Shown piece by piece: positions 2,903 through 32,032 of a stretch of DNA of 53,832 nt (position 1 is the first letter of the stretch; each line of letters starts with the position of its first letter). The notes beneath the pieces were generated by a model. That model saw nothing but the letters and a program-made list of their open reading frames with translations. It was not told where the DNA came from and searched no databases. A program made the translations under genes and the position numbers. Source of the DNA: Gemmatimonadota bacterium (GTDB taxonomy: Bacteria > Gemmatimonadota > Gemmatimonadetes > Gemmatimonadales > GWC2-71-9); assembly GCA_041491545.1 (NCBI GenBank), contig JBGPVE010000001.1, forward strand, positions 1 to 53,832, in the 5' to 3' direction.

Positions 2903-4276
2903 TCAGACTTCGTCGCTCGACCCATCGAGTAGGCGCTGCAATCGCGGTCGTGAAATGCCCAGGCGCCTCGCGGCCTCGCTCTTATTGCCGGCGGTCAGCT
3001 CCAGCATGCGCGCAGCGGCAGCCCGGGCGACCGTCGCGAGATCGGCAGGAAAAGGCAGCGTCCGCGGCGCGGCACCGCCTGCTGGCGGCTCCGCCGGCGC
3101 GGCAAACTCGTCCCACCGGAGCGTTCCTGGCGGCGAGAGCACGAGCGCGCGCTCGATCGCATTCCGCAGCTCTCGCACGTTGCCGGGCCAGCGATGTGCC
3201 CGAAGCGCGGCGCGAGCCTCCGGCGTGAGCGGCGGCACCGGCAGGCCATAACTGGTCGCAAGCCGGGCGATGAACGTTTCGGCCAGAAGGTCGATGTCGC
3301 CATCGCGCTCTCTGAGCGGCGGCAGCGTGAGCGCCACGACGTTGAGCCGATAGTAGAGATCCTCGCGGAACTCGCCTTGCCGCACGGCGGTGGCGAGATC
3401 GACATGGGTGGCGCCGATCACGCGCACGTCGACTCGGCGCGCGGCTTGGCCGCCCACTCGCCGGATCTCGCGGCCCTCGAGCGCCCGCAGCAGCTTGGGC
3501 TGAAGCTCGATCGGGAGATTTCCCACCTCATCGAGAAAGAGCGTCCCGCCGTGCGCCAGCTCGAACAGGCCCGGTTTCGCGGCGATCGCGCCGGTGAACG
3601 CGCCCTTCTCGTGGCCGAACAGCTCGCTCTCGAGCAGCGTGGCCGGAATCGCGGCGCAGTTGATTTCGACGAACGGCGCCGCGGCCCGCGGGCTGTTGTA
3701 GTGAATCGCCCGCGCGAGCAGCTCTTTGCCGGTGCCGGTCTCGCCGCCGATGAGGACGGTGACGTCCGAATGCGGCGCGACCCGACTGGCCTGCTCCAGG
3801 GTACGATGGAGCGCCGGGCTGCGGCCGAGGATCGACTCGAAGCCCGCCGTCCGGCGCTCGGCATCGGCAAAGCGGGCCGCGTCGCGGAGCCCGCGGGCCT
3901 CGCGCACCTCGCGCTCCAACGAGCGGCGCAGGAGGTCCAGATCGTCGGGCAGCGCGAAGTAGTCCTGCGCGCCGCGCTGCACGGCGGAGGCCGCGAGCCG
4001 GTGGTCGGTTGACGCCCCGACCAGGAAAACAGGCGCGCTCGAGGCGGGCAGATCTCCCACGATATCCAATCCTCTTCCCTCCTCACCGCCAGCGAGCAGA
4101 AGCACAAGCGCGGCACCGGCGGGGGGTGATTCCCCCCCCGCCGGTGCCCATTCGAGCAGGTCCACCCCAATCTCAGCTGCGAGGTCGGCCATGGCCGATC
4201 GGAAGCTATCGGAGAGACGGACTAGCGCGATCCAGGTCGAATCAGCCGTGGTGGCCGTGATCGTCCTCCCCATCAT
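2903..4276 (-). CDS. Sigma54-dependent transcriptional activator (bEBP) with degenerate receiver-like N-terminal domain
   Basis: AAA+ core has Walker A GETGTGKE and the sigma54-contact motif ESELFGHEKGAFTGA. C-terminal Fis-type HTH (GNKSEAARRLGISRPRLQRLL). The start is uncertain: Met candidates lie at 4297, 4276, 4273 and 4192. The upstream gene stops at 4242, so longer forms overlap it. Confidence 0.85.
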   Translation of the reverse strand: MMGRTITATTADSTWIALVRLSDSFRSAMADLAAEIGVDLLEWAPAGGESPPAGAALVLLLAGGEEGRGLDIVGDLPASSAPVFLVGASTDHRLAASAVQRGAQDYFALPDDLDLLRRSLEREVREARGLRDAARFADAERRTAGFESILGRSPALHRTLEQASRVAPHSDVTVLIGGETGTGKELLARAIHYNSPRAAAPFVEINCAAIPATLLESELFGHEKGAFTGAIAAKPGLFELAHGGTLFLDEVGNLPIELQPKLLRALEGREIRRVGGQAARRVDVRVIGATHVDLATAVRQGEFREDLYYRLNVVALTLPPLRERDGDIDLLAETFIARLATSYGLPVPPLTPEARAALRAHRWPGNVRELRNAIERALVLSPPGTLRWDEFAAPAEPPAGGAAPRTLPFPADLATVARAAAARMLELTAGNKSEAARRLGISRPRLQRLLDGSSDEV

Positions 4277-5135
4277 GGTTTTCATCTTCGAATGCATGGA
4301 AGGAGCGTTGGATATTCTGCCGCACGACGGTCTCGTTCGGCTGACCGGGGTTGGCCGTCGACGGATCGACCAGCCCACCCGTACCGTTGCCGAACCAGCC
4401 GTTCAGATCGACGAAGATCGTGAGGTCGGTCGCACCGGCCTGCGCTACCGCGAGAGGAGGCGAGAGATCGAGCTCTTGCTCCGCGGTCATGTTGCTGGTG
4501 AAGGTAAAGGGCGTTCCATTCCAGGTGCCCTCGACCCGAATGCTCACGCCGTCGAAGGTCGGGTTGGCCTGAAGGAAGGTCACGTCGTTCGCGCCTTCGG
4601 GCTTGTGAAGCTGGAACTCGACCTTGTCGTAGGTTCCGGCGTCCAGGCTGACCGACAGCGACTGCTGGGCTCCCGCGACGCCCACCGGCACGTCGAGGAG
4701 GACCGGCCCGACCTTCAGCTCCTCGCAGCCATCGGCATGACCGTCGTGGCCCTCGGCGTCGCCCGACTCGGCTTCACCGCTGCCGCTGTTGCCGCTTCCA
4801 GCATCGCCGCCGGTGTTGGCCTGGTCCGCGGCGGGCGGCGTCGAGTTGCCACAGACGCTCGCCGCGGCGTCCGATCGCTTGAGCTCGATCTTGCGCAGCA
4901 CGAGCTGCGCTTTTGTCAGGACCAGCGTGTTGGTGCCGTCAGTGAACGTCCCAGGTGTCGGCGATGTGACATCGAACGACGCCAGCCGAGCCGTCGCCGG
5001 CGTACGAGCCTGGCTCGCGAGGCTGAGGCTCACCTGGCCCTGCGAACCGAGGCCGGTCGTGCTGTCGCCACTGCAGGCGGCGAGACCCATTACGCCGAGG
5101 GCGATGGCCGCGGTAAGCGCGCGCATGGACTGCAT
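4242..5135 (-). CDS. Secreted lipoprotein with His/Asp-rich C-terminus (possibly DUF4382-like)
   Basis: Signal plus lipobox (VMGLAAC-SGD). Beta-rich body. The C-terminus is HAFEDENHDGEDDHGHHG. GGAG lies 8 nt before the ATG at 5135. Confidence 0.65.
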   Translation of the reverse strand: MQSMRALTAAIALGVMGLAACSGDSTTGLGSQGQVSLSLASQARTPATARLASFDVTSPTPGTFTDGTNTLVLTKAQLVLRKIELKRSDAAASVCGNSTPPAADQANTGGDAGSGNSGSGEAESGDAEGHDGHADGCEELKVGPVLLDVPVGVAGAQQSLSVSLDAGTYDKVEFQLHKPEGANDVTFLQANPTFDGVSIRVEGTWNGTPFTFTSNMTAEQELDLSPPLAVAQAGATDLTIFVDLNGWFGNGTGGLVDPSTANPGQPNETVVRQNIQRSFHAFEDENHDGEDDHGHHG

Positions 5136-5374: not shown

Positions 5375-6994
5375 ATGCGGTACCGACCATTGGCTGGGTT
5401 AGGTCTCGCCCTTGTGGGACTCTTTGGCTGCCGGCAACGAACCGAGGGTCCGGCGCGGGGCGGTGGCGCAGCGCGAGACCAGCGAGCGGTGGTTGTGGTG
5501 GCGGTGGGCGAGCCCGCCAGCGTGCTGCCGCCGCTCGCCGTGGAGACTGTGGCGCGGGACATCGGCGACCTGGTATACGAGCGGCTGGCGGATCTGTCCC
5601 CCGGCCGCCCCACCATCGACGTGTCGGCCTATCGGCCTCGGCTGGCTGCCCGGTGGGAGCGGCTCGATTCACTCACCTGGCGCTTTCACCTCTCGCCCGC
5701 CGCACGCTGGGCCGACGGCACGCCGGTCACGGCCGAGGACGTGCGCTTCTCGTTCGAGGCCTTTCAGGACTCGGTGCTCGATTCCCCGGCGCGGCCGAGC
5801 CTCGCCGGTCTCTCGCGGGTGACCGCCGAAGATCCGACCACCGTCAGGGTCACGTTCAACCAGGCGTACCCGGAGCAGCTCTACGACGCGACGTACCACG
5901 TTCGCGTGCTCCCGCGGCACATTCTGGAAGGCATAGCACCGAAAGATTGGGCTCAGGACACGGCGCTCGCGCACCTCGTCGGAAGCGGCGCGTACCGCGT
6001 GGTGGAGTGGAAGCGGGGGCAGTACCTCCGGCTCCGGGCGAAGGAAGGGACCAAGGTCGACATCCGTGAGATCGTGTGGCGGTTCGCCACGGATCCGGAA
6101 GCGGCCGTCAATCTCCTGTTGAGCCACGAGGCCGATCTGATGGAGCTGGCGGCGGTGCCGGGCATGGCGGAGCGGGTCGCTCAGGACAGCGCGCTCAGGG
6201 TCGTCCGCTATCCGTCCACCGCGTACGGCTTCCTCGGATTCAACCTGGGTCCGGCGCGGCGGGGGCGGGCGCATCCGCTCCTGACCGACCGTGCCATTCG
6301 GCGTGCTCTCGCGATGGCCGTCAATCGCTCCGTGCTGGCCCGCGCCACCTTCGGCCCCGGCGCCGCCGCGCCACCGGGACCGATGTCCCGGGTGCTTTGG
6401 ATCTGGAGCGACAGCATCCACACGCTGCCCTACGACACCGCGGCTGCGCGACAACTCCTGGATTCGGCCGGCTGGCGTGTGAGTGCCGACGGCGTCCGGC
6501 GCCACGAAGGCACGCCACTCGGCTTCGACATTCTCGTCCCGGCCACGAGCACGACGCGCCGGCAGCTCGCTACCGCGCTACAGGAGGCGTGGCGGACGGT
6601 GGGCGCAAAGGTGACTGTAACGACCGTGGACTTTCCGGTCTTTCAGGAACGATTGGGGCAGGGAAAGTTCGATGCGTACATCGGCGCGTGGCTGGACGAG
6701 CCGAGCCCGCGGGGCCTGTCCGACCAGTGGACGCGCGCGGGATGGCGCGGGATCAACTACGGTCACTACGCGAATGCGCGCTTCGATTCGCTGTTCACTC
6801 GCGCGGGCCGCGCCCAGGACCCGGCGGCCGCGACGCCGCTGTATCGCGAGGCGATGGACACCCTGAACGCGGACGCGCCGGCGATCTTTCTCTACACGCC
6901 GGCCAACTCCGCCGCGGCGAGTCGGCGACTCGAGGGCGTGGAAATCGATCCGTACAGCTGGCTCAGCTCGCTGCCACGCTGGACGGTGCGCTGA
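5375..6994 (+). CDS. ABC transporter substrate-binding lipoprotein, family 5 (peptide/nickel type)
   Basis: Lipobox LVGLFGC. The length and motifs are typical of DppA/OppA-like SBPs (WRFHLSPAARWADGTPVTAEDVRFSFE, YLRLRA). No permease or ATPase genes are adjacent. Confidence 0.85.
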   Translation: MRYRPLAGLGLALVGLFGCRQRTEGPARGGGAARDQRAVVVVAVGEPASVLPPLAVETVARDIGDLVYERLADLSPGRPTIDVSAYRPRLAARWERLDSLTWRFHLSPAARWADGTPVTAEDVRFSFEAFQDSVLDSPARPSLAGLSRVTAEDPTTVRVTFNQAYPEQLYDATYHVRVLPRHILEGIAPKDWAQDTALAHLVGSGAYRVVEWKRGQYLRLRAKEGTKVDIREIVWRFATDPEAAVNLLLSHEADLMELAAVPGMAERVAQDSALRVVRYPSTAYGFLGFNLGPARRGRAHPLLTDRAIRRALAMAVNRSVLARATFGPGAAAPPGPMSRVLWIWSDSIHTLPYDTAAARQLLDSAGWRVSADGVRRHEGTPLGFDILVPATSTTRRQLATALQEAWRTVGAKVTVTTVDFPVFQERLGQGKFDAYIGAWLDEPSPRGLSDQWTRAGWRGINYGHYANARFDSLFTRAGRAQDPAAATPLYREAMDTLNADAPAIFLYTPANSAAASRRLEGVEIDPYSWLSSLPRWTVR

Positions 6995-7010
6995 GGGTCA
7001 GCGGATCCGG

Positions 7011-8174
7011 CTACGCTGGGTTCGGCTTGGTTTTCGGCGGCCGCTTACCGCGCCGAGGCTCGAAGGTTTCCCGCAGATAGTATTCGGGCTCCACGGCGCC
7101 CACCGTGGCGGCGACCCGCTCTTGCGGCTGCTTGTAGACATAGCGCTGGCCGCGGAAATTCCGGAGCACGACCTCGTCTTCGTTGATGCTCTCGACGTAA
7201 TCGGGCAACAGCGGGATCTTGCCGCCGCCGCCCGGCGCGTCGATCACGTAGTACGGCACCGCCAGCCCGCTGGTCCAGCCGCGCAGCGCCTTCATGATCT
7301 CGAGGCCCTTCTCGATGGGCACGCGGAAGTGTTCCCCACCAGCCACCAGATCCGCCTGATAGATGTAGTAGGGCCGGACCCGGGCCATGAGCAGCCGCTG
7401 CATGAGCAGCTTCATGACTTCGGGATCGTCGTTCACTCCTTTGAGCAGCACCGTCTGACAGCCGAGTGGAATGCCGGCGTCGGCCAGCATGCCGAGCGCC
7501 TTCACGGCGGCGGGAGTCAGCTCGTCGGGGTGGTTGAAGTGCGTATTGATGAACAGCGGATGAAACTGCCGAAGCGTGGCGCAAAGCTCGGGTGTGATCC
7601 GCTCCGGCAGGTGGCACGGTACCCGGCTGCCGATACGGATGATTTGCAGATGGGGGATCGCGCGGAGCCGGGTGAGGATCACTTCGAGCCGCCGGTCGTT
7701 CAGGAGCAGCGGATCGCCACCCGACATGATGACGTCCCGGATCTCGCTGTGCTCCTCGAGATAGCGGAACGCCGACTCGAACTGCGACATCGGGATTTTT
7801 TCGGGATCGCCCACCTTGCGGCGCCGAGTGCAGAAGCGGCAATAGCTGGCGCAGACCGGCGAGACGAGGAATAGCGCCCGGTCGGGATAGCGATGAGTGA
7901 TGTTGGGGACGGGGCTGTCGGCGTCCTCGCTCAGCGAGTCGACGATGCCGTCCACCACGTCGAGCTCCTCGACCGTCGGCACGTACTGCCGCCAGATCGG
8001 ATCGTCAGGCGACTTGATGATGTCGACCATCGCCGGTGAGATCCGGAACTCGAAGTTGTCCGCGGCTTGGCGCAGCCGATCCAGCTCGGGAAAGTTCTCG
8101 GAGCCGAATTTGGCCGCGAGCGCTTCGACCGATGCGAGGGACCGTTTCCGTAAGACTTCCTGCCAAGTATCCAT
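7011..8174 (-). CDS. kamA: KamA-family radical SAM lysine 2,3-aminomutase
   Basis: Radical SAM cluster motif CASYCRFCTRR. A Gly-rich PLP-lysine motif (DAPGGGGKIPL) is conserved. GGAGGA SD lies about 13 nt before the ATG. Lys/Pro-rich C-terminal tail. Confidence 0.9.
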   Translation of the reverse strand: MDTWQEVLRKRSLASVEALAAKFGSENFPELDRLRQAADNFEFRISPAMVDIIKSPDDPIWRQYVPTVEELDVVDGIVDSLSEDADSPVPNITHRYPDRALFLVSPVCASYCRFCTRRRKVGDPEKIPMSQFESAFRYLEEHSEIRDVIMSGGDPLLLNDRRLEVILTRLRAIPHLQIIRIGSRVPCHLPERITPELCATLRQFHPLFINTHFNHPDELTPAAVKALGMLADAGIPLGCQTVLLKGVNDDPEVMKLLMQRLLMARVRPYYIYQADLVAGGEHFRVPIEKGLEIMKALRGWTSGLAVPYYVIDAPGGGGKIPLLPDYVESINEDEVVLRNFRGQRYVYKQPQERVAATVGAVEPEYYLRETFEPRRGKRPPKTKPNPA

Positions 8175-8197
8175 GGGGCTACGCGTCCTCCGTCTCG

Positions 8198-8692
8198 CTA
8201 GGCGGGAACAGTCAGCGCCTTGAGGTAGACGATCTGGTCGTCACCTGGAGCGTAGAAATTCTGGATGCGGGCCGCCGGCCGGTAGCCGCGGGCCTCGTAG
8301 AAAGCGCGAGTGGCGGCGTAGTCGTCGCGCCCGGCGGTTTCGACCACGATGAGCCGAGCGCGACCCGCGAGGCGTTGCTCCATCTCGCGGATGAGAGCCG
8401 TACCGACGCCGCTGCCCTGCGCGGTCGGGTCGACCGCCATCCAATAGAGATCGTAGGTGCCAAGGGTGCAGGGTGTGGGGCCCCAACAGATCCACCCGAC
8501 GAGGCGGCCGTCAAGCGCAGCGCCGAGCATAGCGTAGTCCGCCGAGCCCGCCGCCGCCGCGTCGAAGACTTCGAGCGCCACGGGGATCTCGTCCTCCCGG
8601 AAGACCGCGACCGCGCGGGTGATCGTCTCGATCCGGCCGCGGTCGGCGGCCGTGAGACTGCGGAGTGTCGGTCGGGTCAGCGTTCGAGTCAG
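8198..8692 (-). CDS. GNAT-family N-acetyltransferase (start codon unresolved)
   Basis: Acetyl-CoA motif QGSGVGTALIREMEQRL. The ORF track starts at GTG 8581. The frame stays open up to the ATP-grasp stop and encodes a GNAT-like beta1/alpha1 (LRSLTAADRGRIETITRAV). No ATG, GTG or TTG occurs there. A CTG overlaps the upstream TGA (CTGA at 8689-8692). Confidence 0.7.
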   Translation of the reverse strand: MTRTLTRPTLRSLTAADRGRIETITRAVAVFREDEIPVALEVFDAAAAGSADYAMLGAALDGRLVGWICWGPTPCTLGTYDLYWMAVDPTAQGSGVGTALIREMEQRLAGRARLIVVETAGRDDYAATRAFYEARGYRPAARIQNFYAPGDDQIVYLKALTVPA

Positions 8693-9702
8693 GCGGCAGG
8701 CACCCCACTGACGAGGGCGGCGGCGAAGCGATTGCTCTCCGAGCGGGCCAGTGCTTCGTCGACGATACGGTGGACCAGCTCATCATAGTCCCAGCCGAAC
8801 GCCTGGCCCATGCGGGCAAGGCCCGCATTGCTGGACAGATCGGGGCAGGGATTCACCTCGAGGACGTAGGGCTGGCCGTCTTCGGTGACGCGGAGATCGA
8901 CTCGACCGTACCCCTCGGCGCCGGACATGAGCTCCCAGGCGCGCCACGCGGTCTGGGCGATCCGCTTGGCCTGATCCGACGGAATCTCCGCCGGGCAGAC
9001 CGGCAGGGTGCCGAGGTCCTCGGCGCTGCCGGTCTGCCACTTGGCGGCGTAGGTGACGATCGGCCAGCTATCGGTCGGCATGGCGTCGAACCGGATTTCG
9101 GCGATGGGCAGCATCTGCTTGCCGACGAATCCGACGTTGAACTCGCGGCCCGGCACGTACTCCTGGATCATCACCTCGTCGAACTGCTCGGTCATCTGGG
9201 CCACCCGCTTCCGGAGCGCCTTGCGGGTGGTACAGACGGCGTTGCCGTCGATGCCGACGCTCGCATCCTCGGCGGCGGGCTTGACGATGGCGGGGATCGG
9301 GAACTCGCTGGGCAGCGAGTTGCTGCCCTGGGCCAGGGCGAAGCTCGGGATCGGCACGCCGCCGTGGGAGAGCAGGGTATTCGCCACGTGCTTCCGGTGG
9401 CAGACGGTGACCGGCCAGGAGCGGCAGCCCGTGAACGGGAGCCCGGTGAGCTCGAGCGTGCTCACGACGAAGTCTTCGTACTTGGCGTGCCCGTTGATCC
9501 CCTCGCAGAGGTTCACGATGACGTCGGCGCGCCGGGCGCGGGAGAGCCAGCGGAACTCGCCTAGACGCACGGGAACGAGCTCGACCTCGTAGCCGCGCCG
9601 CCGGAGCGAGTTCCGCACCTCATGCACGTTGCTGAGGACCGCGGCCACGTCCTGGGCGCTCCACTCGGAGCTGCCGGCGTCATAGATGATCGCTGCTCTC
9701 AT
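8689..9702 (-). CDS. ATP-grasp ligase, D-Ala-D-Ala ligase-like (copy 2)
   Basis: Ddl-like architecture (IVKPAAEDASVGI, EVMIQEYVPGREFNVG, GYGRVDLRV, VLEVNPCPDLS). I place the start at ATG 9702 because it forms an ATGA overlap with the upstream stop. The track start at 9747 is 15 codons longer. Confidence 0.8.
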   Translation of the reverse strand: MRAAIIYDAGSSEWSAQDVAAVLSNVHEVRNSLRRRGYEVELVPVRLGEFRWLSRARRADVIVNLCEGINGHAKYEDFVVSTLELTGLPFTGCRSWPVTVCHRKHVANTLLSHGGVPIPSFALAQGSNSLPSEFPIPAIVKPAAEDASVGIDGNAVCTTRKALRKRVAQMTEQFDEVMIQEYVPGREFNVGFVGKQMLPIAEIRFDAMPTDSWPIVTYAAKWQTGSAEDLGTLPVCPAEIPSDQAKRIAQTAWRAWELMSGAEGYGRVDLRVTEDGQPYVLEVNPCPDLSSNAGLARMGQAFGWDYDELVHRIVDEALARSESNRFAAALVSGVPAA

Positions 9703-10775
9703 GAGGCTACCTCTGCCAGGAGTGAACGGCCGCTGATTCTGCGCCACGCGATGTCCGCCGCAGTGCAGATCAACTCGTCGTATGACATCCCGGCCGCTGC
9801 CGCGGCCTTCGGGAAGCAGGAATTGTCCCGGGGATCGGGCAAAATGCCCGGCAACGGGTTCAATTCGACGACCATCGGACGACCGGCGGCGTCACAGCGC
9901 AGATCCACGCGGCACCAGTCGCGACAATCCAGAGCATGATACGCTTCGAGCGCGGCGGCTCTGATCGACTCGGCGAGCGCCTCGGGAATTCGCGCCGGGC
10001 ACTCGAAGATGTCGAGCGGATGCGTCGGCGTGTCCCAGAGCCACTTGGCCTCGTAGCCGTAAATCGGGGGCGCGCCGGCCGGGAGACTGTCAAAACACAT
10101 GCCGACGACGGGCAAACAGCGCGCCTCCTCATCGTTGCCGAGGATGGCCACGGTGAATTCGGGGCCCGCGAGATAGGTCTCGATCAGCACCGGCTCGCGA
10201 TAGGTGGCGAGCAAATAGTCCACCTGCGTGATCAACTCGGCCCGATTGTGACAGAGGCTCCGGCTTGAAACCCCCTTGCCCGATCCCTCGAACGCCGGCT
10301 TGACGAAGAGCGGGAAGGGAAGGCGAGTGCTCCGAGCGTCCGCGGTGGTGCGCGCGAGACGAAAGGGCGCGGTCGGCACGCCGTACTGCTGGAGAATCTC
10401 CTTGGCGCGTCCCTTATGGAGCGCCAAGCCGAGCGTGAGCGGATCGGACGCGTGATAGGGCACGCCGAAGAACTCGCAGATCGCGGGCACGTGGCTCTCG
10501 CGATTCGGGCCGATGAGCCCCTCGGCGATGTTGAACACGAAGTCGGGGCGATAGTCGACCAGCTTCTGGGGAAAGTCCTGATTGGCCTCGAGGCGGATGA
10601 CTTCGCCGAGCGTGCTCAGCGCCCGTTCGACCGCGTCGATGGTGCTCGGGTCGTCCCACTCGATGTAGAGATCGGGCTGCGGAAGATCGGGTCGGAGCGC
10701 CCGACTGGAAGGTTCGTCGGAAGGAGAGGGGTCGGTCACTGCGCCGGCGGTGGTGGCCGGAGCTTCGGGCTTCAC
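9699..10775 (-). CDS. ATP-grasp ligase, D-Ala-D-Ala ligase-like (copy 1)
   Basis: Ddl-like motifs (LFVKPAFEGSGKGV, VLIETYLAGPEFTVAIL, DWCRVDLRCD, VVELNPLPGI). GTG start at 10775 with a low-complexity N-terminal extension, so the exact start is uncertain. Confidence 0.8.
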   Translation of the reverse strand: MKPEAPATTAGAVTDPSPSDEPSSRALRPDLPQPDLYIEWDDPSTIDAVERALSTLGEVIRLEANQDFPQKLVDYRPDFVFNIAEGLIGPNRESHVPAICEFFGVPYHASDPLTLGLALHKGRAKEILQQYGVPTAPFRLARTTADARSTRLPFPLFVKPAFEGSGKGVSSRSLCHNRAELITQVDYLLATYREPVLIETYLAGPEFTVAILGNDEEARCLPVVGMCFDSLPAGAPPIYGYEAKWLWDTPTHPLDIFECPARIPEALAESIRAAALEAYHALDCRDWCRVDLRCDAAGRPMVVELNPLPGILPDPRDNSCFPKAAAAAGMSYDELICTAADIAWRRISGRSLLAEVAS

Positions 10776-10818
10776 GTTGTAGGCGAGACCGATCCGAACT
10801 GGCAGAAGCTTCCTCTAC

Positions 10819-10846
10819 AAAAAAGGCCGTCCCCAAGAGACGAGCC
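10819..10846 (-). terminator. Candidate intrinsic terminator (short hairpin plus T6) downstream of thyX
   Basis: The minus strand reads ...TCGTC-TCTTGGG-GACGG-CC-TTTTTT. The stem is weak (about 5 bp). If it terminates efficiently, little room is left for a promoter for the ATP-grasp operon. Confidence 0.3.
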
Positions 10847-10936
10847 GAGTCGAAGTGACTACCTCATGGACTTAAAGTAAGAAAAACAATTCGGACGCAC
10901 AAGAAGGCAGGACATAATGGAAGGTGAGGGGTGGAT

Positions 10937-10956
10937 GGTGAAAAGGTGCTTTCACC
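10937..10956 (-). terminator. Hairpin GGTGAAA-N6-TTTCACC immediately after the thyX stop
   Basis: A 7-bp inverted repeat read directly, 8 nt past the TGA at 10964-10966. There is no U-tract, so its function is uncertain. Confidence 0.3.
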
Positions 10957-10963
10957 GCCGCGC

Positions 10964-11716
10964 TCACACCTTGTGGTAGCCCACCCGCCCGCACTCGGTG
11001 CCATCCGCGGCGCGATAGATCTCGATATCCGCGAAGAGCGATGGCGCCTCGATCTGCAGTCGCCTGAGGCATGCGACGGCCATACGGCGAATCTCGAGCT
11101 CGGCGCCTTCGCCGAGGCGGAGCTCGAGCATCGTACGCCAGGCCCGGACATTCGCGCTCACTACGATCTTCACTTCCGTGGCGTTGGGCAGCACGCTGCG
11201 GGCGGCCTCGCGCGCCAGCTTCCGGCGGTGCACCCGATCTTCCACCCAGGAGTACTTCTCCATCAATCGCTCGACTGCGGCGACGTAGGCCGTCTGAGCG
11301 GCCTCCACCTGCGCGGTCCAGTCGGCCTCGAGCCGAGCATCGCCCTGGATCGCTGGAGGCATCACGAAGGCGGCGTGGGACTCGTCCACGTAGCGTTGCG
11401 AGAGCTGGGAGTAGCCAAAGCCGGCTCGGTGGCGGACCAGCTCGTGGCTGCACGAGCGCGAGATGCCTTCGATCAGCAGCACGTACACGGCGTGCTCGAA
11501 GACCGACCCGTGCCCTTGCCGCAGGATGTTCTGTAGATAGTCCCCGGTCGTCCGACCGGCCGGATTGTGCTGGCTCATGTAACAGAGCCGGCCGGCGAAC
11601 TCCGCGAGCCGCTCTCCGTCGGTCGCCTCGCCTTTCCACTGCACGGGCAGATGCGCGGGCTCCACAAACTGCGGGCGGGCGATGAGGGTGATGCCGGGCT
11701 CGCGGATGATGTCCAT
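10964..11716 (-). CDS. thyX: FAD-dependent thymidylate synthase ThyX
   Basis: ThyX signature ELVRHRAGFGYSQLSQRY. The start is trimmed to ATG 11716 (MDIIREPG) because the upstream gene ends at 11751. Confidence 0.9.
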   Translation of the reverse strand: MDIIREPGITLIARPQFVEPAHLPVQWKGEATDGERLAEFAGRLCYMSQHNPAGRTTGDYLQNILRQGHGSVFEHAVYVLLIEGISRSCSHELVRHRAGFGYSQLSQRYVDESHAAFVMPPAIQGDARLEADWTAQVEAAQTAYVAAVERLMEKYSWVEDRVHRRKLAREAARSVLPNATEVKIVVSANVRAWRTMLELRLGEGAELEIRRMAVACLRRLQIEAPSLFADIEIYRAADGTECGRVGYHKV

Positions 11717-11750
11717 AGGTCGGGATGAGCGTAGATGAGGAGTTGAGGCG

Positions 11751-13391
11751 TTATCCGTCGGCGATCTCGAGCCGCGGCCGCGCGTATCCACCGCGCCGCT
11801 CGATCTCCCGCAAAGCGTCGGCGATGTCCGACGGCAACGGCACCGCGCCGGCGCCGGCCTTGAGCCGTGCCACCGGCGGCTCGCCGGACGGAAGGATAAT
11901 GCCGGGATTGAGAATTCCGAGGGGATCGAAGCTCTCCTTGATCCTTCGGAAGAGTCCCACGATCTCGGCGCCATAGACCCGCTCCAGAAAGCCGGCGCGA
12001 AGCCGACCGTCGCCGTGTTCGCCGGACGGCACGCCGCCGAGCCGGATCACGAGGTCCGTGACCTCCTCGAGCAGGCTGCTCACTGCCTGCTCCCAGCCGG
12101 GCCGCGCCACCTCGGGGAGCAGGTTCACATGCACGTTGCCGTCGCCCGCGTGACCGAAGACCACGACCGCGAGCGCCCGGGCCCGCGCGGCGCGGCGGAT
12201 GCCGGTGACGTAGTCGCCGATCCGCTCGACCGGCACGCACCCGTCCTCGATCACTTGCAGCGATCGCCGGTCCGGCGGCAGGCCCGCGAGAATCGGACTG
12301 GCGGCGTGCCGCAATCGCCAGAGGCGCTCCGCGTCGGCCGGGGCGATCGCCGTCTCGGCTCGGGCGGCCAGCAGGCGCGTCTCCGCCGCGGCCAGCTCGA
12401 CGATCGCGGCCAGGCGCCGAGGATCGTCGCCCTCGAACTCGACGAGAAGGATGGCTTCGGCGTCGGCCGACGCGAGTCCGGCGACGTCCTCGCCGCCATG
12501 CTCCGCGACCAGCTCGAGAAAGGTTCGGTCGAGCAGCTCGACGGCCGACGCCTGAAGCGCGACGAGCCGGCGCACGATGTCGCCGAGCGACGCGTAGTCG
12601 GCAAGCGTGAGCCGGAGACCGGCGCGGTGGCGCGGTACCGGGTCCAGTCGCCACTCGACCTCGGTGATGAGCCCGAGCGTTCCTTCGGATCCGATGACGA
12701 GGTCGAGCAGGTCGCCCGACCGGAGGAAGGCATCCAGCGCATATCCCGACGAGTTCTTCCGCGTCCTCGGATAATGCCGCTCGATCCGCGGAGCCGCGGC
12801 GCGGATGGCGGGCTCGACCTCCGCGATGAATCGGCGCGCCGCGGCAACGCGCCCCGGCTCCATCATGCCACCGCCTCGGCGAAACTCCGCCAGCTCGCCA
12901 TCGACCGTCACCAAGCGCACGGCCTCGACCCACGCGCGCACGCTGCCGTAGCGCACCGAACGCGCCCCGGCAGCGTTGGTCGAGACCACGCCGCCCGCCG
13001 TGGCCCATCGCCAGCTCGAAGGATCGGGCGGCAGCCGAAGCCCGTGCGGCGCGGCGGCGGCGTCCAGCTCGCCGAGACTGGCGCCTGCCTGCATCACGGC
13101 CCGGCGTTCGTCGGATCGCACCTCGATCCGTGGTCCCGCCATGGCCGTCAGGTCTACGACTACGCCATCGCCCACGTTGCCGCCGCCCATCGCGCTTCCG
13201 GCACCGCGAGCCACCAGGGGAACGCGTTCGGCGGCGGCCCACCGGACCAGGGCCAGGAGATCGTCGGTGTCGGCGGGGAGGCAGACGGCGCTGGGGACGA
13301 TACGATAGATGCCAGCGGCTTCAGCGTAGGCAGCCCGCGCCCGTTCATCGGCTCGAAATGGGCCTCGAATCGGAGGCTTAGAAGGCATCAT
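11751..13391 (-). CDS. FAD-linked oxidase (GlcD/D-lactate dehydrogenase family)
   Basis: FAD-binding PCMH-type motifs (VPLVARGAGSAMGGGNVGDGVVVDL, YALDAF, GDGNVHVNL, GEHGDGRLR). Confidence 0.85.
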   Translation of the reverse strand: MMPSKPPIRGPFRADERARAAYAEAAGIYRIVPSAVCLPADTDDLLALVRWAAAERVPLVARGAGSAMGGGNVGDGVVVDLTAMAGPRIEVRSDERRAVMQAGASLGELDAAAAPHGLRLPPDPSSWRWATAGGVVSTNAAGARSVRYGSVRAWVEAVRLVTVDGELAEFRRGGGMMEPGRVAAARRFIAEVEPAIRAAAPRIERHYPRTRKNSSGYALDAFLRSGDLLDLVIGSEGTLGLITEVEWRLDPVPRHRAGLRLTLADYASLGDIVRRLVALQASAVELLDRTFLELVAEHGGEDVAGLASADAEAILLVEFEGDDPRRLAAIVELAAAETRLLAARAETAIAPADAERLWRLRHAASPILAGLPPDRRSLQVIEDGCVPVERIGDYVTGIRRAARARALAVVVFGHAGDGNVHVNLLPEVARPGWEQAVSSLLEEVTDLVIRLGGVPSGEHGDGRLRAGFLERVYGAEIVGLFRRIKESFDPLGILNPGIILPSGEPPVARLKAGAGAVPLPSDIADALREIERRGGYARPRLEIADG

Positions 13392-25515: not shown

Positions 25516-25632
25516 CGGAATTGGGCTGGAAGCCGCTGGAAGCTGGATGAGATGCGCGGACGATGCAAGGTGCTGGGCCCGGCATGCTATGTTTGAGACC
25601 CGTTGCATAGTAATGGAAAAGGAAGCGAACTG

Positions 25633-27450
25633 ATGATCCAGCAGCCCATTTCCGCCTACGGGCTGATCGGCGACATGCGAACCGCGGCGCTGGTCGGGCT
25701 CGACGGCGCCATCGACTGGTGTTGCCTTCCCCGCTTCGACAGCGGGAGCGTCTTCGGCGCGCTGCTCGATCCGGAGCGGGGCGGCACGTGGTCGATTCGT
25801 CCCTCGGAGCCCTGGACCTCGACCCAGCGCTACCTCGCCCGCACCAACGTGCTGGAGACCACCTTCACCACCACCGCCGGCGCCGTGGTCACGCTGACCG
25901 ACTTCATGCCGGTCACGGCCGACGGCCGCCCGGCCGGGCAGCATCCCGAGATCCATCGTCGGGTGCATTGCACCCGCGGCCGAGCGGATCTCGCCGTCGT
26001 GTTCATGCCGCGCTTCGAGTACGGCTCGCGCACCACGCGGCTGGAGACGTTGCGCGCCGGCATCTTCGCCACCGACCGCGCCGATCAGGTGGTGACCATC
26101 GCGAGCAGCGCCACGCTCGATTGGTCGATCGAGCAGTCGACCGCCGTCGCCGCCTTCCCCCTCGCCCGGGGCGAACAGCGCTGGTTCGTCCTGCGCTACG
26201 ACGACGACGACATCTACCCGGCGGATCGCTACGAAAGCGAGGAGAAGCTCGACGTCACATCCGCCTTCTGGCAGCAATGGGCCGCAGCGGTGCGGTACAA
26301 CGGCCCCTACCGCACGATGGTCAAGCGCTCGGCGCTCGTGCTCAAGCTCCTGACCCATGCGGAGACCGGCGCGATCATCGCGGCGCCCACGACCTCCGTG
26401 CCCGAAACCATCGGCGGCAGCCGCAACTGGGACTACCGATTCGTGTGGCTTCGGGACGCGGCCTTCACGCTCGAGGCGTTGGCGAACGTGGGCCACCAGG
26501 CTGAAGCCGACGCGTTCATGCGCTTCCTCAAGAAGGTCTGCCGGCACGAAGGCGGCGGTCACCTGCAGATCATGTATGGGATCGACGGGCGGCGAGACCT
26601 GGTCGAGCGGCAGTTGGATCATCTGAGCGGCTATCGCAACTCACGGCCCGTCCGCGTCGGAAACGGCGCCGCCGGCCAGTTGCAGCTCGACGTCTACGGC
26701 GAGGTGCTCGCGACGGCGGACATTTGGCGCCGCGACCATCCGATGACCGATGCCACCTGGCGGGTGCTTCGGGGTCTCGTCGATTGGGTGAGCTGCAACT
26801 GGCAGCAACCCGACTCGAGCATCTGGGAGGTCCGGGGCGAGCCCCGACACTACGTTTTCAGCAAGGTGATGAGCTGGGTCGCGCTCGATCGCGGCGTGGG
26901 GATGGCGGAGGATCTCGGGCTCGAGGGGAACCTCGATCACTGGCGTGCCCAACGGGCTGCGCTCCATGCCGAAATCATGGAGCGCGGGTGGAGCGAGACG
27001 CGGCAATCGTTCCTGCAAGCCTACGGTGATGACGCGCTCGACGCCGCGACGCTCACCATCCCGATGGTTCGATTCCTCCCGTGGGACCATCCGCGTGTAC
27101 GGGCGACGGTGCGCGCGGTGGCACGCGAGCTCACCAGCGCCGACGGCGAGCTGGTCTACCGCTATCGCCACCCAGACGGGCTGGAAGGCGACGAAGGCGC
27201 GTTCTCCATTTGCACCTTCTGGCTCGCGCACGCGCTCGCCATGACCGGCGATCGCGATCGAGCCGACCGCGTGATGCGCCGGATGCTGCGCCATGCAAAC
27301 CACGTCGGTCTCTTCTCTGAGGAGATCGATCCCGCCACCGACGAGTTTCTCGGTAATTTTCCGCAGGGGCTCACGCACATCGCGCTGATCAATTGCGCGA
27401 TCGCGCTCGCGCTGGCGGGTCGGGAGGAGAAAGTGAAGCGCCCCGCCTGA
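25633..27450 (+). CDS. Glycoside hydrolase family 15 (glucoamylase/trehalase-like)
   Basis: GH15 motifs are YGLIGDMRTAALVGLDGAIDWCCLPRFDS, NWDYRFVWLRDAAF, SIWEVRG and FSEEID. Start at ATG 25633 is preceded by AAGGAAG. Confidence 0.9.
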   Translation: MIQQPISAYGLIGDMRTAALVGLDGAIDWCCLPRFDSGSVFGALLDPERGGTWSIRPSEPWTSTQRYLARTNVLETTFTTTAGAVVTLTDFMPVTADGRPAGQHPEIHRRVHCTRGRADLAVVFMPRFEYGSRTTRLETLRAGIFATDRADQVVTIASSATLDWSIEQSTAVAAFPLARGEQRWFVLRYDDDDIYPADRYESEEKLDVTSAFWQQWAAAVRYNGPYRTMVKRSALVLKLLTHAETGAIIAAPTTSVPETIGGSRNWDYRFVWLRDAAFTLEALANVGHQAEADAFMRFLKKVCRHEGGGHLQIMYGIDGRRDLVERQLDHLSGYRNSRPVRVGNGAAGQLQLDVYGEVLATADIWRRDHPMTDATWRVLRGLVDWVSCNWQQPDSSIWEVRGEPRHYVFSKVMSWVALDRGVGMAEDLGLEGNLDHWRAQRAALHAEIMERGWSETRQSFLQAYGDDALDAATLTIPMVRFLPWDHPRVRATVRAVARELTSADGELVYRYRHPDGLEGDEGAFSICTFWLAHALAMTGDRDRADRVMRRMLRHANHVGLFSEEIDPATDEFLGNFPQGLTHIALINCAIALALAGREEKVKRPA

Positions 27451-30279: not shown

Positions 30280-31316
30280 TGCGCGCGCTCGCGCTCGAGG
30301 GCACCGGCGGGCTCAAGCACCTCTCCGTGCGGGAGGTGCCGACACCGGTCATCACCCGCGCGAACGACGTCAGGATCCGGGTTCACGCCGCGGCGATCAA
30401 CCATCTGGATCTCTTCGTGGCCGGCGGTCTGCCCGGCATGGAGTACACCTTTCCCCACGTGATCGGTTCCGATGGCGCTGGTGTCGTCGAGTCGATCGGC
30501 CCCGCGGTGCGGTCGGTCGCCGTCGGCGATCGGGTCATGGTGAACCCCGCTATCTCTTGCGGCGCCTGTCAGTCTTGCCTCGAAGGGGAGGAGTCGCTCT
30601 GCCGGGAATTCCGGGTCCTCGGCGAGCATTTGCCCGGCGCCATGGCCGAATATGTGGTGGTCCCCGAGGAGAATGTCGCGCCCGTGCCCGACGCGATGCC
30701 GTGGGATCGTGCCGCCGCCTTCTCGCTCGCCACGCTCACGGCCTGGCGAATGCTCACGACCCGGGCCACCCTCCGCCCGGGTGAGACGGTGCTGATCTGG
30801 GGCATCGGCGGCGGCGTCGCTCAGGCGGCGCTCCAGATCGCCAAGCTCCTCGGCGCCTATGCGATCATCACCAGTGGATCGGACGCCAAGCTAGAGGCCG
30901 CCCGCGCGATGGGCTCGGATGCGGAGTTGAATCACGCGCGCAGCGACGTCGTGGCTGAAGTGCGGCGCCTCACCGGCGGGCGCGGAAGCGATGTCGTAGC
31001 GGACTCGGTGGGCGAGCGGACCTGGCAGGCTTCGCTCCGCGCGCTCCGGCGCGGTGGGCGGCTCGTCGTCTGCGGCGCCACGACCGGCCCGATGGTCAAC
31101 ATCGATTTGCGCCGCCTCTTCTGGCATCAGTGGACCATCTTGGGATCCACGGCGGGCAGCCGCCGTGAATATCGTGATATTGTGCGACTGGCCGGCCTCG
31201 GCCGGCTGTGGCCCGTGGTCGACCGGACTGTGCCGCTCGATCGAGCGGTGGACGCGCTGGCCCGCCTGGCCGGCGGCGAGCAGTTCGGCAAACTGGTAAT
31301 CGAGGTGACCCCGTGA
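30279..31316 (+). CDS. Zinc-type alcohol dehydrogenase / MDR-superfamily oxidoreductase
   Basis: MDR motifs are GSDGAGVVESIG, CGACQSCLEGEESLC and VLIWGIGGGVAQAALQIAK. Its ATG overlaps the upstream TGA by 1 nt (TGATG). Confidence 0.85.
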   Translation: MRALALEGTGGLKHLSVREVPTPVITRANDVRIRVHAAAINHLDLFVAGGLPGMEYTFPHVIGSDGAGVVESIGPAVRSVAVGDRVMVNPAISCGACQSCLEGEESLCREFRVLGEHLPGAMAEYVVVPEENVAPVPDAMPWDRAAAFSLATLTAWRMLTTRATLRPGETVLIWGIGGGVAQAALQIAKLLGAYAIITSGSDAKLEAARAMGSDAELNHARSDVVAEVRRLTGGRGSDVVADSVGERTWQASLRALRRGGRLVVCGATTGPMVNIDLRRLFWHQWTILGSTAGSRREYRDIVRLAGLGRLWPVVDRTVPLDRAVDALARLAGGEQFGKLVIEVTP

Positions 31317-32032
31317 ACGAGTTACGCGAGCGTCTCATGGCGGGCGCCCAACAGATCGGCAGCGTCCTCCCCGCCATTCTCGGGGCGACGCTCATTCTCG
31401 TGACTGGGTATTTCCTCGCGCGGCAAGTGCAGCGCTGGGTGGACGAGACGCTCAAACGGCTCGACTTCAACCGGGTGGCGGCCGCGGGAGGACTCGATCA
31501 GGTGGTGGAGCGCACCGGCTCCCGACTCGATCCGATTCGCGCGCTGGCCAAGTTGATCTTCTGGCTGGTGATGCTGGTCGTGATCCTGCTGTCCAGCGCG
31601 GCGCTCGGCCTGGAGAGCATCAGTCAGATGTTCGGCACGATGCTCGCCTTCATTCCCACGCTCATCGCCGCCATCGTGATCGTGATCCTCGGCATGATCG
31701 TAGGGGATTTCGTGCGCGGATTGATCGTGGCGTCCGCGGGGAACGTGGCGGGGGTCCCGACCGTGGCCAAGATGGCCAAGGGCGCGGTCATCCTGATCTC
31801 GGTGTTCATGGCGCTGCAGCAGGTGGGTGTGGCGGAGGAGATCGTTACCTCGGCGTTCACCCTGAGTTTGGGCGCCGTGGCGCTCGCGGTGGGCTTGGCG
31901 TTCGGGTTGGGCAATCGCGAGCTGGCGGGTCAGATCACGCGGCGCTGGTACGAGCAAGGACAGCGGCGCGACCGGCGGCGGACCGATCGCCCGGGGAGCT
32001 CGCCGCCGGACGATCCTCCGATCCTGGACTAG
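31313..32032 (+). CDS. Membrane protein with conserved-TM-helix repeats (MscS-N-terminal-like)
   Basis: GTG start in a GTGA overlap with the upstream stop. Repeated TM helices are followed by amphipathic segments. The family assignment is from memory. Confidence 0.6.
   Translation: MNELRERLMAGAQQIGSVLPAILGATLILVTGYFLARQVQRWVDETLKRLDFNRVAAAGGLDQVVERTGSRLDPIRALAKLIFWLVMLVVILLSSAALGLESISQMFGTMLAFIPTLIAAIVIVILGMIVGDFVRGLIVASAGNVAGVPTVAKMAKGAVILISVFMALQQVGVAEEIVTSAFTLSLGAVALAVGLAFGLGNRELAGQITRRWYEQGQRRDRRRTDRPGSSPPDDPPILD

Follow-up and report, generated by a model that had tools for sequence, protein, structure and literature searches.

Two Ddl-like ATP-grasp ligases in one operon with a lysine 2,3-aminomutase and an acetyltransferase: a candidate pathway to an acetylated beta-lysine peptide

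What might two ATP-grasp enzymes resembling D-alanine-D-alanine ligase (Ddl), a GNAT acetyltransferase and a lysine 2,3-aminomutase make together? The question is raised by four genes on the minus strand at 7011-10805 of a 53,832-nt stretch of DNA from a Gemmatimonadota bacterium (assembly GCA_041491545.1, contig JBGPVE010000001.1), the whole of which is referred to here as the window. In the direction of reading, the genes encode a first and a second ATP-grasp ligase (AG1 and AG2), the GNAT and a KamA-family protein. The original prediction, made from the letters of the window, proposed two successive ligations and an acetylation acting on beta-lysine, in a pathway not yet characterised. The present analysis gives a probability of about 0.6 to the operon being a biosynthetic cassette for a small acetylated beta-lysine peptide. 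This answer draws on the conserved order of the four genes, on the fusions that link them in distant lineages and on the residues that the enzymes keep or change.

Conservation, distribution and gene fusions

A genome scan with KamA, taking one genome per species, provides the 80 best loci. All of these come from metagenome-assembled genomes (MAGs) of Gemmatimonadales except one that is labelled Bacillota, and KamA identity ranges from 76 to 88%. When the loci are searched with all four proteins using tblastn, the order AG1-AG2-GNAT-KamA is recovered in every locus of the 80 with enough DNA, and because it recurs in this way the arrangement is not due to chance. A wider block is syntenic in many of the 80 loci and consists of genes for a DUF116 protein, an FAD-linked oxidase and ThyX, then the cassette and a convergent SBP_bac_5 gene, with a lipoprotein and a sigma-54 activator as further members. 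Since both the gene order and the wider block are syntenic across loci, the cassette is taken as vertically inherited throughout the order. The conservation of the neighbourhood, which had been left to be checked, thus extends to all Gemmatimonadales loci with enough DNA and, as described below, to distant lineages. The locus labelled Bacillota ('Bacillota bacterium MAG294', L003, JBLMWC010000013.1) has a KamA that is 81% identical and is fully syntenic with Gemmatimonadales, so its genome is probably mis-binned or mis-classified.

The KamA genome scan and an earlier AG1 protein search reached close Gemmatimonadales relatives only. A further AG1 search, performed on 1.84 billion representatives at 50% identity, returns 969 representative clusters at E < 1e-30, many of which are fusion proteins. 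KamA precedes AG1 in one type of fusion (P0134, P0185, P0188, P0329, P0311, P0364 and P0457) and follows it in another (P0189 and P0375), AG1 and AG2 form tandems in both orders (P0125, P0126, P0130, P0135 and others), AG2 is fused to GNAT in L090, and AG1, AG2 and GNAT are joined in P0443 and P0454. The ligase fused to KamA is always of the AG1 type, with 39-44% identity to AG1 and about 30% to AG2. Fusions of KamA with AG1, of AG1 with AG2 and of AG2 with GNAT indicate that the four proteins act in consecutive steps of one pathway. Judged by name, the archaeal sources are Thermoplasmatota, Methanocellales, Woesearchaeota and Nanoarchaeota (DPANN), and the bacterial sources are Spirochaetes, Deltaproteobacteria (Syntrophobacteraceae and Desulfoferrobacter), Planctomycetes and Gammaproteobacteria.

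The genes around these fusions vary in their arrangement. A KamA-ligase fusion is accompanied by one separate ATP-grasp gene in a Woesearchaeota locus (L082), by two in a Deltaproteobacteria locus (L083), and by one together with a GNAT gene in Methanocellales (L085) and Syntrophobacteraceae (L091); in one Spirochaete (L087) the fusion stands alone. The same fusion is found with an ATP-grasp gene and an HDAC-GNAT fusion in L088, and with a ligase-GNAT fusion in L090. Separate KamA genes accompany a tandem ligase and a GNAT in a second Spirochaete (L092) and a ligase-ligase-GNAT fusion in L093. A sigma-54 activator gene is located upstream of the cassette in L091, beyond two small open reading frames (ORFs), and one archaeal cassette lies beside MscL and cation transporter genes.

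As an independent check, metagenome contigs were scanned with a pattern built from the AG2 alignment alone, and the count was confined to loci flanked by 5 kb or more on each side. KamA is present in 23 of the 25 AG2-seeded loci, AG1 in 22/25, GNAT in 19/25 and an HDAC-GNAT fusion in 3/25. The arrangements include KamA-AG1-AG2-GNAT, the AG1-AG2-GNAT-KamA order of the window, and a third in which genes for a PAS histidine kinase, a sigma-54 response regulator and a receiver protein are located between AG1 and KamA-AG2. These two-component genes occur, with no GNAT, in a single lineage represented by L156 (1882-5215), L141, L142, L153, L157, L161, L166, L167 and L172.

A sister cassette is found in 3/3 contexts (L089:1024-5196, L174:2667-6839 and L175:3048-7199). 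It consists of a 432-aa PaaK/F390-synthetase-like adenylating enzyme, an ATP-grasp-KamA fusion of about 716 aa and an S51 peptidase resembling cyanophycinase, a combination that hints at an aspartyl-peptide or polymer-type product in this branch.

Family assignment of the four enzymes

KamA contains the Pfam domains Radical_SAM and LAM_C and aligns with the lysine 2,3-aminomutase of Clostridium subterminale (2A5H) at 49.7% identity over 338 residues (E 1e-110). Both motifs that had been reported for it are found: CASYCRFC aligns with C125/C129/C132 of 2A5H, the CxxxCxxC motif for the 4Fe-4S cluster and S-adenosylmethionine (SAM), and DAPGGGGK is the same in both proteins, including the pyridoxal phosphate (PLP) lysine K337. 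KamA also keeps R134, which contacts the substrate carboxylate, and D293 and D330, which contact the epsilon-ammonium group. These substrate residues are replaced in glutamate 2,3-aminomutase. The cluster cysteines, R134 and the equivalents of D293, D330 and K337 are retained by the cassette KamAs of other phyla. With its lysine, PLP and SAM-cluster residues all kept, the protein could plausibly form beta-lysine, as had been suggested. The zinc ligand C268 is replaced by Asp, the C-terminal tail has no Cys, and the C-terminal CxCxxC zinc cluster of the Clostridium enzyme is absent.

Among the NCBIfam models, KamA passes the KamA-family model TIGR00238 (285 bits, cut-off 199). It scores below the cut-offs of the AblA-type lysine 2,3-aminomutase model TIGR03820 (440 bits, cut-off 525) and of the models for glutamate 2,3-aminomutase (385 bits, cut-off 650), AblA_like_2 (325 bits, cut-off 396), arginine 2,3-aminomutase (311 bits, cut-off 600) and EpmB (228 bits, cut-off 369). 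On these scores and residues, KamA is assigned to a lysine-type subfamily of its own that is closer to AblA than to EpmB (440 versus 228 bits) and does not group with the latter. Genes for efp and epmA are absent from the 53.8-kb window and from the Pfam-annotated genes around 13 cross-phylum cassettes, a set that does not include the metagenome loci. An assignment to EpmB and the modification of elongation factor P (EF-P) is rejected on the profile scores, on the lack of efp and epmA in the window and on the archaeal distribution.

Both ligases contain the D-Ala-D-Ala ligase C-terminal domain PF07478 (E 2e-35 for AG1 and 2.3e-27 for AG2), and their closest solved relatives in a PDB sequence search are Ddl enzymes (E 8e-29 and 1.5e-21, respectively). 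The AlphaFold2 model of AG1 has a mean predicted local distance difference test score (pLDDT) of 84 and a predicted template modelling score (pTM) of 0.85. Its top 50 Foldseek matches are all Ddl, with template modelling (TM) scores of 0.77-0.81 normalised to the target and identities of 22-27%. The best Ddl model, NF002378, gives 164 bits for AG1 and 137 bits for AG2 against a cut-off of 243, so that the family score is not reached. In AG1 the first beta-strand is followed by a low-complexity insert of 34 residues rich in Pro, Ser and Ala (residues 14-47), which precedes the first helix and is modelled as disordered (pLDDT <50); the Ddl counterpart is short.

For a comparison of active-site residues, 29 cassette domains were aligned with a sequence of E. 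coli DdlB that was checked over all but its N-terminal 63 residues. K97, K144, E180, E187, K215, R255, D257, E270 and N272 are retained with scattered single substitutions, one of which is Gln for E180 in AG2 of the window. At other positions the domains depart from Ddl. H63 is replaced by Glu in 28/29 domains of both clades. All ten domains of the AG2 type have Trp for Y216, and the AG1 type has either Trp, as in the window, or Glu, Gln, Lys or Ala. S150 is Ser or Thr in the AG1 type and Ala or Gly in the AG2 type (S150A in AG2 of the window), S281 is retained in the AG1 type and variable in the AG2 type, and L282 is Cys, Asp, Arg or Lys in the AG1 type and Gly in the AG2 type. The window ligases have L282C and a 4-residue insert (AG1) and L282G (AG2). 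D51 of AG1 is an acidic residue at the position of Ddl Glu15, and the N-domain acidic residues E49, E95, E103 and D121 do not vary among the AG1 homologues in the alignment; these acidic residues would fit a cationic amino-acid donor such as beta-lysine.

Because the catalytic set is kept, the Ddl cut-offs are failed and the substrate positions are changed, AG1 and AG2 are best regarded as two active paralogues in a clade distinct from cell-wall Ddl, with acceptor pockets that probably differ. The window contains no mur, fts or ddl genes. An assignment of the pair to ordinary cell-wall D-Ala-D-Ala ligases, named at the outset as an outcome that would undo the proposal, is rejected on the model scores, on the altered substrate residues and on the occurrence of the cassette in archaeal MAGs.

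The GNAT matches PF00583 (E 2e-12) and PF13508 (E 3.8e-12) and contains the acetyl-CoA motif QGSGVG. Its best NCBIfam match is RimI at 47 bits, with a cut-off of 86. The AblB model TIGR03827 gives no match to it at E <= 0.01, and the Ngg model TIGR03103 reaches 16.8 bits, on the GNAT only, with a cut-off of 569; membership in either family is rejected on these scores. GNATs of distant bacterial cassettes (Deltaproteobacteria, a Spirochaete and others) are 35-47% identical, with E values of 1e-29 to 1e-42, and those of archaeal cassettes belong to a different subfamily, Acetyltransf_3. In L088 a domain of the histone deacetylase (HDAC) family, PF00850, directly follows AG2 and is fused to the GNAT in a 761-aa protein (L088:10587-12872). 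An HDAC domain after AG2, either fused to the cassette GNAT or followed by it, is also found in L107, L108, L118, L119, L125, L130, L132, L135 and L138. The pairing of HDAC and GNAT domains suggests that an alkyl-amine is acetylated reversibly.

Reading frames, leader elements and neighbouring genes

The close packing of the genes noted in the original prediction is present in full. The AG1 stop and the AG2 start overlap in ATGA at 9702-9699, the open GNAT reading frame crosses the AG2 stop, and 23 nt separate the GNAT stop (8200-8198) from the kamA ATG at 8174, with GGAGGA at 8191-8186. On this layout the four genes are read as one translationally coupled operon. The overall plan of the genes stands as first drawn, and the probable starts of AG1 and GNAT are corrected to CTG codons at 10805 and 8692 (Table 1).

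The AG2-stop/GNAT-start overlap is GTGA, ATGA or TTGA in about 65 of 70 relatives and CTGA in the window, and a GNAT beginning at the first ATG, GTG or TTG (8581) would lose 37 conserved residues. Because relatives overlap the AG2 stop at the same position, the GNAT probably starts at the non-canonical CTG 8692. In relatives AG1 starts with TTG-GCA-GTT-CGG-ATC (fM-A-V-R-I-G-L), or with ATG in place of TTG in one divergent group, and the window reads CTG-CCA-GTT-CGG-ATC. AG1 homologues have 367-369 aa, and the ORF of the window from GTG 10775 has only 358. The strand formed by residues 4-9 (RIGLAY), which lies upstream of this GTG, is modelled with a pLDDT of about 89. The GAGG of the Shine-Dalgarno-like GAGGAAG is kept at the same place in relatives. 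Taken together, the relatives' starts, the homologue lengths, this GAGGAAG and the modelled first strand make CTG 10805 the most likely start rather than GTG 10775. Two CTG starts in one operon (10803-10805 and 8690-8692) could reflect low expression, a coupling that tolerates CTG or a sequence error.

Table 1. Positions of the genes and sequence elements of the operon in the window
Feature	Position	Strand	Basis
AG1, Ddl-like ATP-grasp ligase, 368 aa from probable CTG 10805	9699-10805	-	Pfam, relatives
AG2, paralogous Ddl-like ATP-grasp ligase, 337 aa	8689-9702	-	PF07478; ATG within ATGA overlap
GNAT acetyltransferase, 164 aa, probable CTG start in CTGA with AG2 stop	8198-8692	-	Pfam, relatives
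KamA-family lysine 2,3-aminomutase, 387 aa	7011-8174	-	NCBIfam, 2A5H alignment
GGAGGA Shine-Dalgarno of kamA, 11 nt before ATG	8186-8191	-	sequence
GAGGAAG Shine-Dalgarno-like site, 3 nt before proposed AG1 CTG	10809-10815	-	sequence
Sigma-70-like promoter candidate, TTGTGC (10902-10897), 17 nt, TACTTT (10879-10874)	10874-10902	-	conserved motif
Terminator-like hairpin (10846-10825) and T6 (10824-10819), just upstream of AG1 ribosome-binding site	10819-10846	-	terminator scan
Hairpin with T-rich tail, 10 pairs, between the end of the solute-binding protein gene (6994) and the kamA stop (7013-7011)	7002-7024	+	terminator scan

Upstream of AG1, the motif TTGTG-N-TTTTTCTTAnnTTAG is kept in about 52 of 59 relatives, including loci with a hairpin-less leader. 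Because the corresponding site in the window scores under the threshold of a consensus scanner, it is listed as a candidate promoter. The AG1 leader after this motif is about 62 nt long and contains a hairpin that appears in both the minimum-free-energy and the centroid fold. The 30 leaders from Gemmatimonadales that were aligned keep the hairpin, 7 of them with a C-G pair in place of U-A, and the fold energy of the leader is unremarkable (z = -0.9). The hairpin may serve as the thyX terminator, as a leader attenuator or as both. No Rfam family is matched at E <= 1 over 6500-12000, and RNAalifold applied to the 30 leaders returns no conserved element beyond the terminator hairpin, neither an aptamer nor an antiterminator; an upstream riboswitch is rejected on these two results. 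No sigma-54 promoter is found upstream of AG1, and the window as a whole has 8 matches versus 17 expected by chance. The hairpin at the 3' end of kamA is a possible shared terminator of this gene and the convergent one, and the number of such terminator sites in the region is not above shuffle expectation.

The thyX gene is unlikely to belong to the operon: only about half of the loci from Gemmatimonadales have it next to the cassette, none from other phyla does, and it is separated from AG1 by a promoter-like motif and a hairpin. The longest thyX ORF (10964-11974, minus strand, ATG at 11974) shares about 220 nt with the 3' end of the gene for the FAD-linked oxidase (11751-13391, minus strand); the Thy1 domain begins well inside this ORF, so the true start is probably near 11700. 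On the other side, an orphan gene for a family-5 solute-binding protein of the peptide/nickel type (5375-6994, plus strand) converges on kamA with a 16-nt gap and has no adjacent permease genes in the window. About half of the Gemmatimonadales loci have such a gene on the strand opposite to kamA, at most a few kb downstream. It is not counted as part of the cassette, since it is convergent, kept only in part of the order and absent from other lineages. A sigma-54 activator gene lies 2.6 kb downstream of the cassette in the window (2903-4378). Genes of osmotic-stress type, for a GH15/trehalase-like glycoside hydrolase (25597-27450, plus strand) and a mechanosensitive-channel protein (31178-32032, plus strand), are located 15-20 kb away, too far to be linked to the cassette.

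Proposed pathway, rival explanations and known systems

In the proposed pathway, KamA would use radical-SAM and PLP chemistry at its intact lysine site to convert L-lysine to beta-lysine, a step that is well supported. AG1 would take beta-lysine, which probably acts as the carboxyl donor, and form an amide bond through an acyl-phosphate intermediate. AG2, with a different acceptor pocket, would then add a second amide bond, and the GNAT, whose gene overlaps that of AG2 or is fused to it, would cap the free amine with acetyl-CoA. The predicted product is a cytoplasmic N-acetylated small molecule resembling a beta-lysine di- or tripeptide. The two ligations and one acetylation originally envisaged on beta-lysine are supported by the analysis: KamA is separate from EpmB, the neighbourhood is conserved, the literature and the NCBIfam equivalog models turn up no characterised counterpart and the ligases are not ordinary Ddl.

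The role of the product is the least certain part of the proposal. The leading guess is a stress-protective or compatible solute, by analogy with N-epsilon-acetyl-beta-lysine and N-acetylglutaminylglutamine amide (NAGGN). An intracellular solute is favoured over a wall component, an EF-P modification or an antibiotic because the cassette occurs in archaea, has a fixed synteny, lacks export, resistance and tailoring genes and has regulators nearby. Genes for exporters, resistance, nonribosomal peptide synthetases (NRPS), polyketide synthases or tailoring are not consistently adjacent to the cassette, and the order-wide syntenic block points to a core physiological function rather than to a secondary-metabolite cluster of sporadic occurrence. 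The sigma-54 or two-component regulators beside or inside the cassette in other lineages and the conserved leader hairpin in this one suggest that expression is regulated. There is roughly an even chance that the cassette defines an unrecognised class of metabolite, an N-acetylated beta-lysine peptide or short oligomer made by duplicated Ddl-like ligases tied to KamA and perhaps used as a compatible solute or stress protectant. This class would be spread over Gemmatimonadota, Deltaproteobacteria, Spirochaetota, Planctomycetota, Thermoplasmatota, Methanocellales and DPANN.

Several points weigh against this proposal. The sequences point to no specific substrate besides lysine, the steps are ordered by fusions and gene order only, and the product is a prediction from the genes. 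The GNAT is missing beside the cassette in Woesearchaeota (L082), in Deltaproteobacteria (L083) and in loci of the L156 type; together with the different archaeal subfamily, this means that the acetylation step may not be universal. The HDAC-like domain on some GNATs complicates a simple end-product model. The two CTG starts in the window could mean low expression in this host, and no direct sign of an osmotic role is found, apart from the one archaeal cassette that has MscL and cation transporter genes next to it.

An unlikely alternative is that the ligases iterate or alternate to form a polyamide reserve of nitrogen or carbon, similar to cyanophycin or poly-beta-lysine, with the GNAT capping or regulating the chain. 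Two ligase activities acting on a diamino acid resemble cyanophycin synthetase, which has two ligase domains; the sister cassette pairs its ATP-grasp-KamA fusion with a cyanophycinase-like peptidase in each of its contexts; and NtrC-type sigma-54 regulators, which often govern nitrogen metabolism, are located near or inside some cassettes. The main four-gene cassette, however, has no peptidase, the nearest relatives of both ligases are Ddl enzymes that form one bond per substrate pair, and Pfam detects no primer-binding or extra domains. Still less probable is the modification of a macromolecule, in which beta-lysine and an acetyl group would be added to a protein C-terminus or side chain as by RimK/RimI or EpmA/EpmB. 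The RimI match of the GNAT, the placement of archaeal cassette GNATs in Acetyltransf_3, which includes the RimJ/RimL type, the beta-lysine carried by EF-P of gamma-proteobacteria and weak TTL-family matches on some homologues would all fit such a role. They are set against an EpmB score of 228 bits where 369 is needed, a RimI score that is likewise under its cut-off, and the lack of a linked efp, epmA or target gene in the contexts examined. Known enzymes of the Ddl clade also use small molecules, and the cassette occurs in Thermoplasmatota and DPANN archaea, which are not known to have a bacterial-type EF-P.

In the least probable of the rivals, an AblA/AblB-type pair makes N-epsilon-acetyl-beta-lysine and merely stands beside two spare cell-wall D-Ala-D-Ala ligases. 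KamA plus GNAT is indeed the AblAB gene set, and AG1 homologues are annotated 'D-alanine-D-alanine ligase' in public databases. This explanation is made very improbable by the low Ddl scores and altered substrate residues of the ligases, by the lack of an AblB match of the GNAT at E <= 0.01, by the KamA-AG1, AG2-GNAT and AG1-AG2-GNAT fusions, which put the ligases in the same pathway, and by the presence of the cassette in MAGs of Thermoplasmatota and DPANN, which are not known to have a murein wall. A further rival is a small biosynthetic cluster whose product, a bioactive peptide with beta-lysine in it, would be secreted and act as an antibiotic, a siderophore or a signal. In its favour, beta-lysine is part of several antibiotics, among them streptothricin and viomycin. 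Antibiotics that are di- or tripeptides are also made by ATP-grasp L-amino-acid ligases working in sequence, with RhiM/RhiC in rhizocticin as a reported example (PMC13579937). A product of this kind is about as improbable as macromolecule modification, given that the cassette keeps its syntenic place throughout the 80 sampled species of Gemmatimonadales and that no transporter, resistance or tailoring gene is consistently adjacent to it. The cassette is also found in MAGs of DPANN archaea with reduced genomes, a spread atypical of specialised metabolites. Thermoplasmatota and DPANN include wall-less and reduced-genome lineages. The acetylated beta-lysine peptide is retained as the most likely product of the operon.

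If this proposal is true, the operon would add to the known beta-amino-acid metabolites and extend the Ddl-type ligases to a further class of substrate, and it would bear on the stress survival of soil Gemmatimonadota, of anaerobic Deltaproteobacteria and Spirochaetes and of a number of archaeal groups. The name 'D-alanine-D-alanine ligase' is at present routinely, and wrongly, given to such ligases. The hypothesis can be tested directly, as four genes and a single known precursor are involved and the mass range can be predicted, and the enzymes are possibly useful as ATP-dependent beta-amino-acid ligases in biocatalysis. In agreement with the original prediction, a full-text literature search returns no description of a pathway with KamA and Ddl-like ATP-grasp ligases, and the NCBIfam equivalog models give no characterised match for the cassette.

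Among the closest known systems is AblA/AblB of methanogens and some bacteria, in which a GNAT and a lysine 2,3-aminomutase from the clade of KamA produce acetylated beta-lysine with a neutralised amine. AblA/AblB has no ligases, whereas two are integral here as judged by the fusions; the KamA of the window reaches 440 bits where the AblA model requires 525 and is without the Cys/Zn region at the C-terminus, and the window GNAT is not AblB-like. Ngg/AsnO combines a GNAT and an ATP-grasp domain, fused in Ngg, to make the N-acetylated dipeptide solute NAGGN, which recalls the AG2-GNAT fusions; by analogy, the pairing of GNAT and ligase is also likened to mammalian N-acetylaspartylglutamate synthesis (NAT8L with RIMKLA/B). 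Here, the score against the Ngg model is 17 bits versus a cut-off of 569, no asnO-type amidotransferase gene is adjacent, the ligases are of the Ddl clade and the precursor would be beta-lysine from a radical-SAM enzyme. EpmB/EpmA shares a KamA-family aminomutase that supplies beta-lysine for an amide bond. It differs in the EpmB subfamily, in the use of a lysyl-tRNA synthetase paralogue as ligase and in its link to efp, none of which is seen here, and the present cassette is archaeal as well.

For the ligases, Ddl/VanA provides the whole-protein fold (TM about 0.8 to the target), the residues for ATP and Mg and the catalytic set for acyl-phosphate formation. The cassette ligases differ from Ddl/VanA in failing the family cut-offs, in H63, Y216, S150, S281 and L282, in the 34-residue insert of AG1, in having no mur/ftsQ context and in their presence in archaeal MAGs. 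The nearest mechanistic precedent for KamA plus AG1 is PylB/PylC. PylB is a radical-SAM lysine isomerase, and PylC is a Ddl-related ATP-grasp enzyme that joins the rearranged amino acid to an amine. PylB is not a KamA-family protein, the operon contains no BioB-like radical-SAM or PylD-like gene, and there is no PylD or tRNA/PylS context here. PylC structures are deposited in the PDB, and no pyrrolysine-pathway protein is found among the PDB sequence matches of AG1 and AG2 (E <= 0.001) or the top 50 Foldseek matches.

Systems with more than one ligation complete the comparison. RhiM/RhiC of rhizocticin and BacD/YwfE stand for sequential L-amino-acid ligases, with two ATP-grasp enzymes working in turn to make a tripeptide without a ribosome or NRPS. 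They belong to another ATP-grasp branch and to secondary-metabolite clusters with tailoring and export genes, and the only L-amino-acid ligase among the PDB matches of AG1 and AG2 is BL00235 (E about 1e-5 to 1e-4). Cyanophycin synthetase likewise combines two ligase activities to give an amide-linked product of a basic and an acidic amino acid; unlike it, the cassette has no Mur-ligase-like domain, and the S51 peptidase that resembles cyanophycinase is a feature of the sister cassette, with none in the window or the main cassette. Compared with all of these systems, the operon apparently brings known enzyme families together in a combination that is undescribed and widespread.

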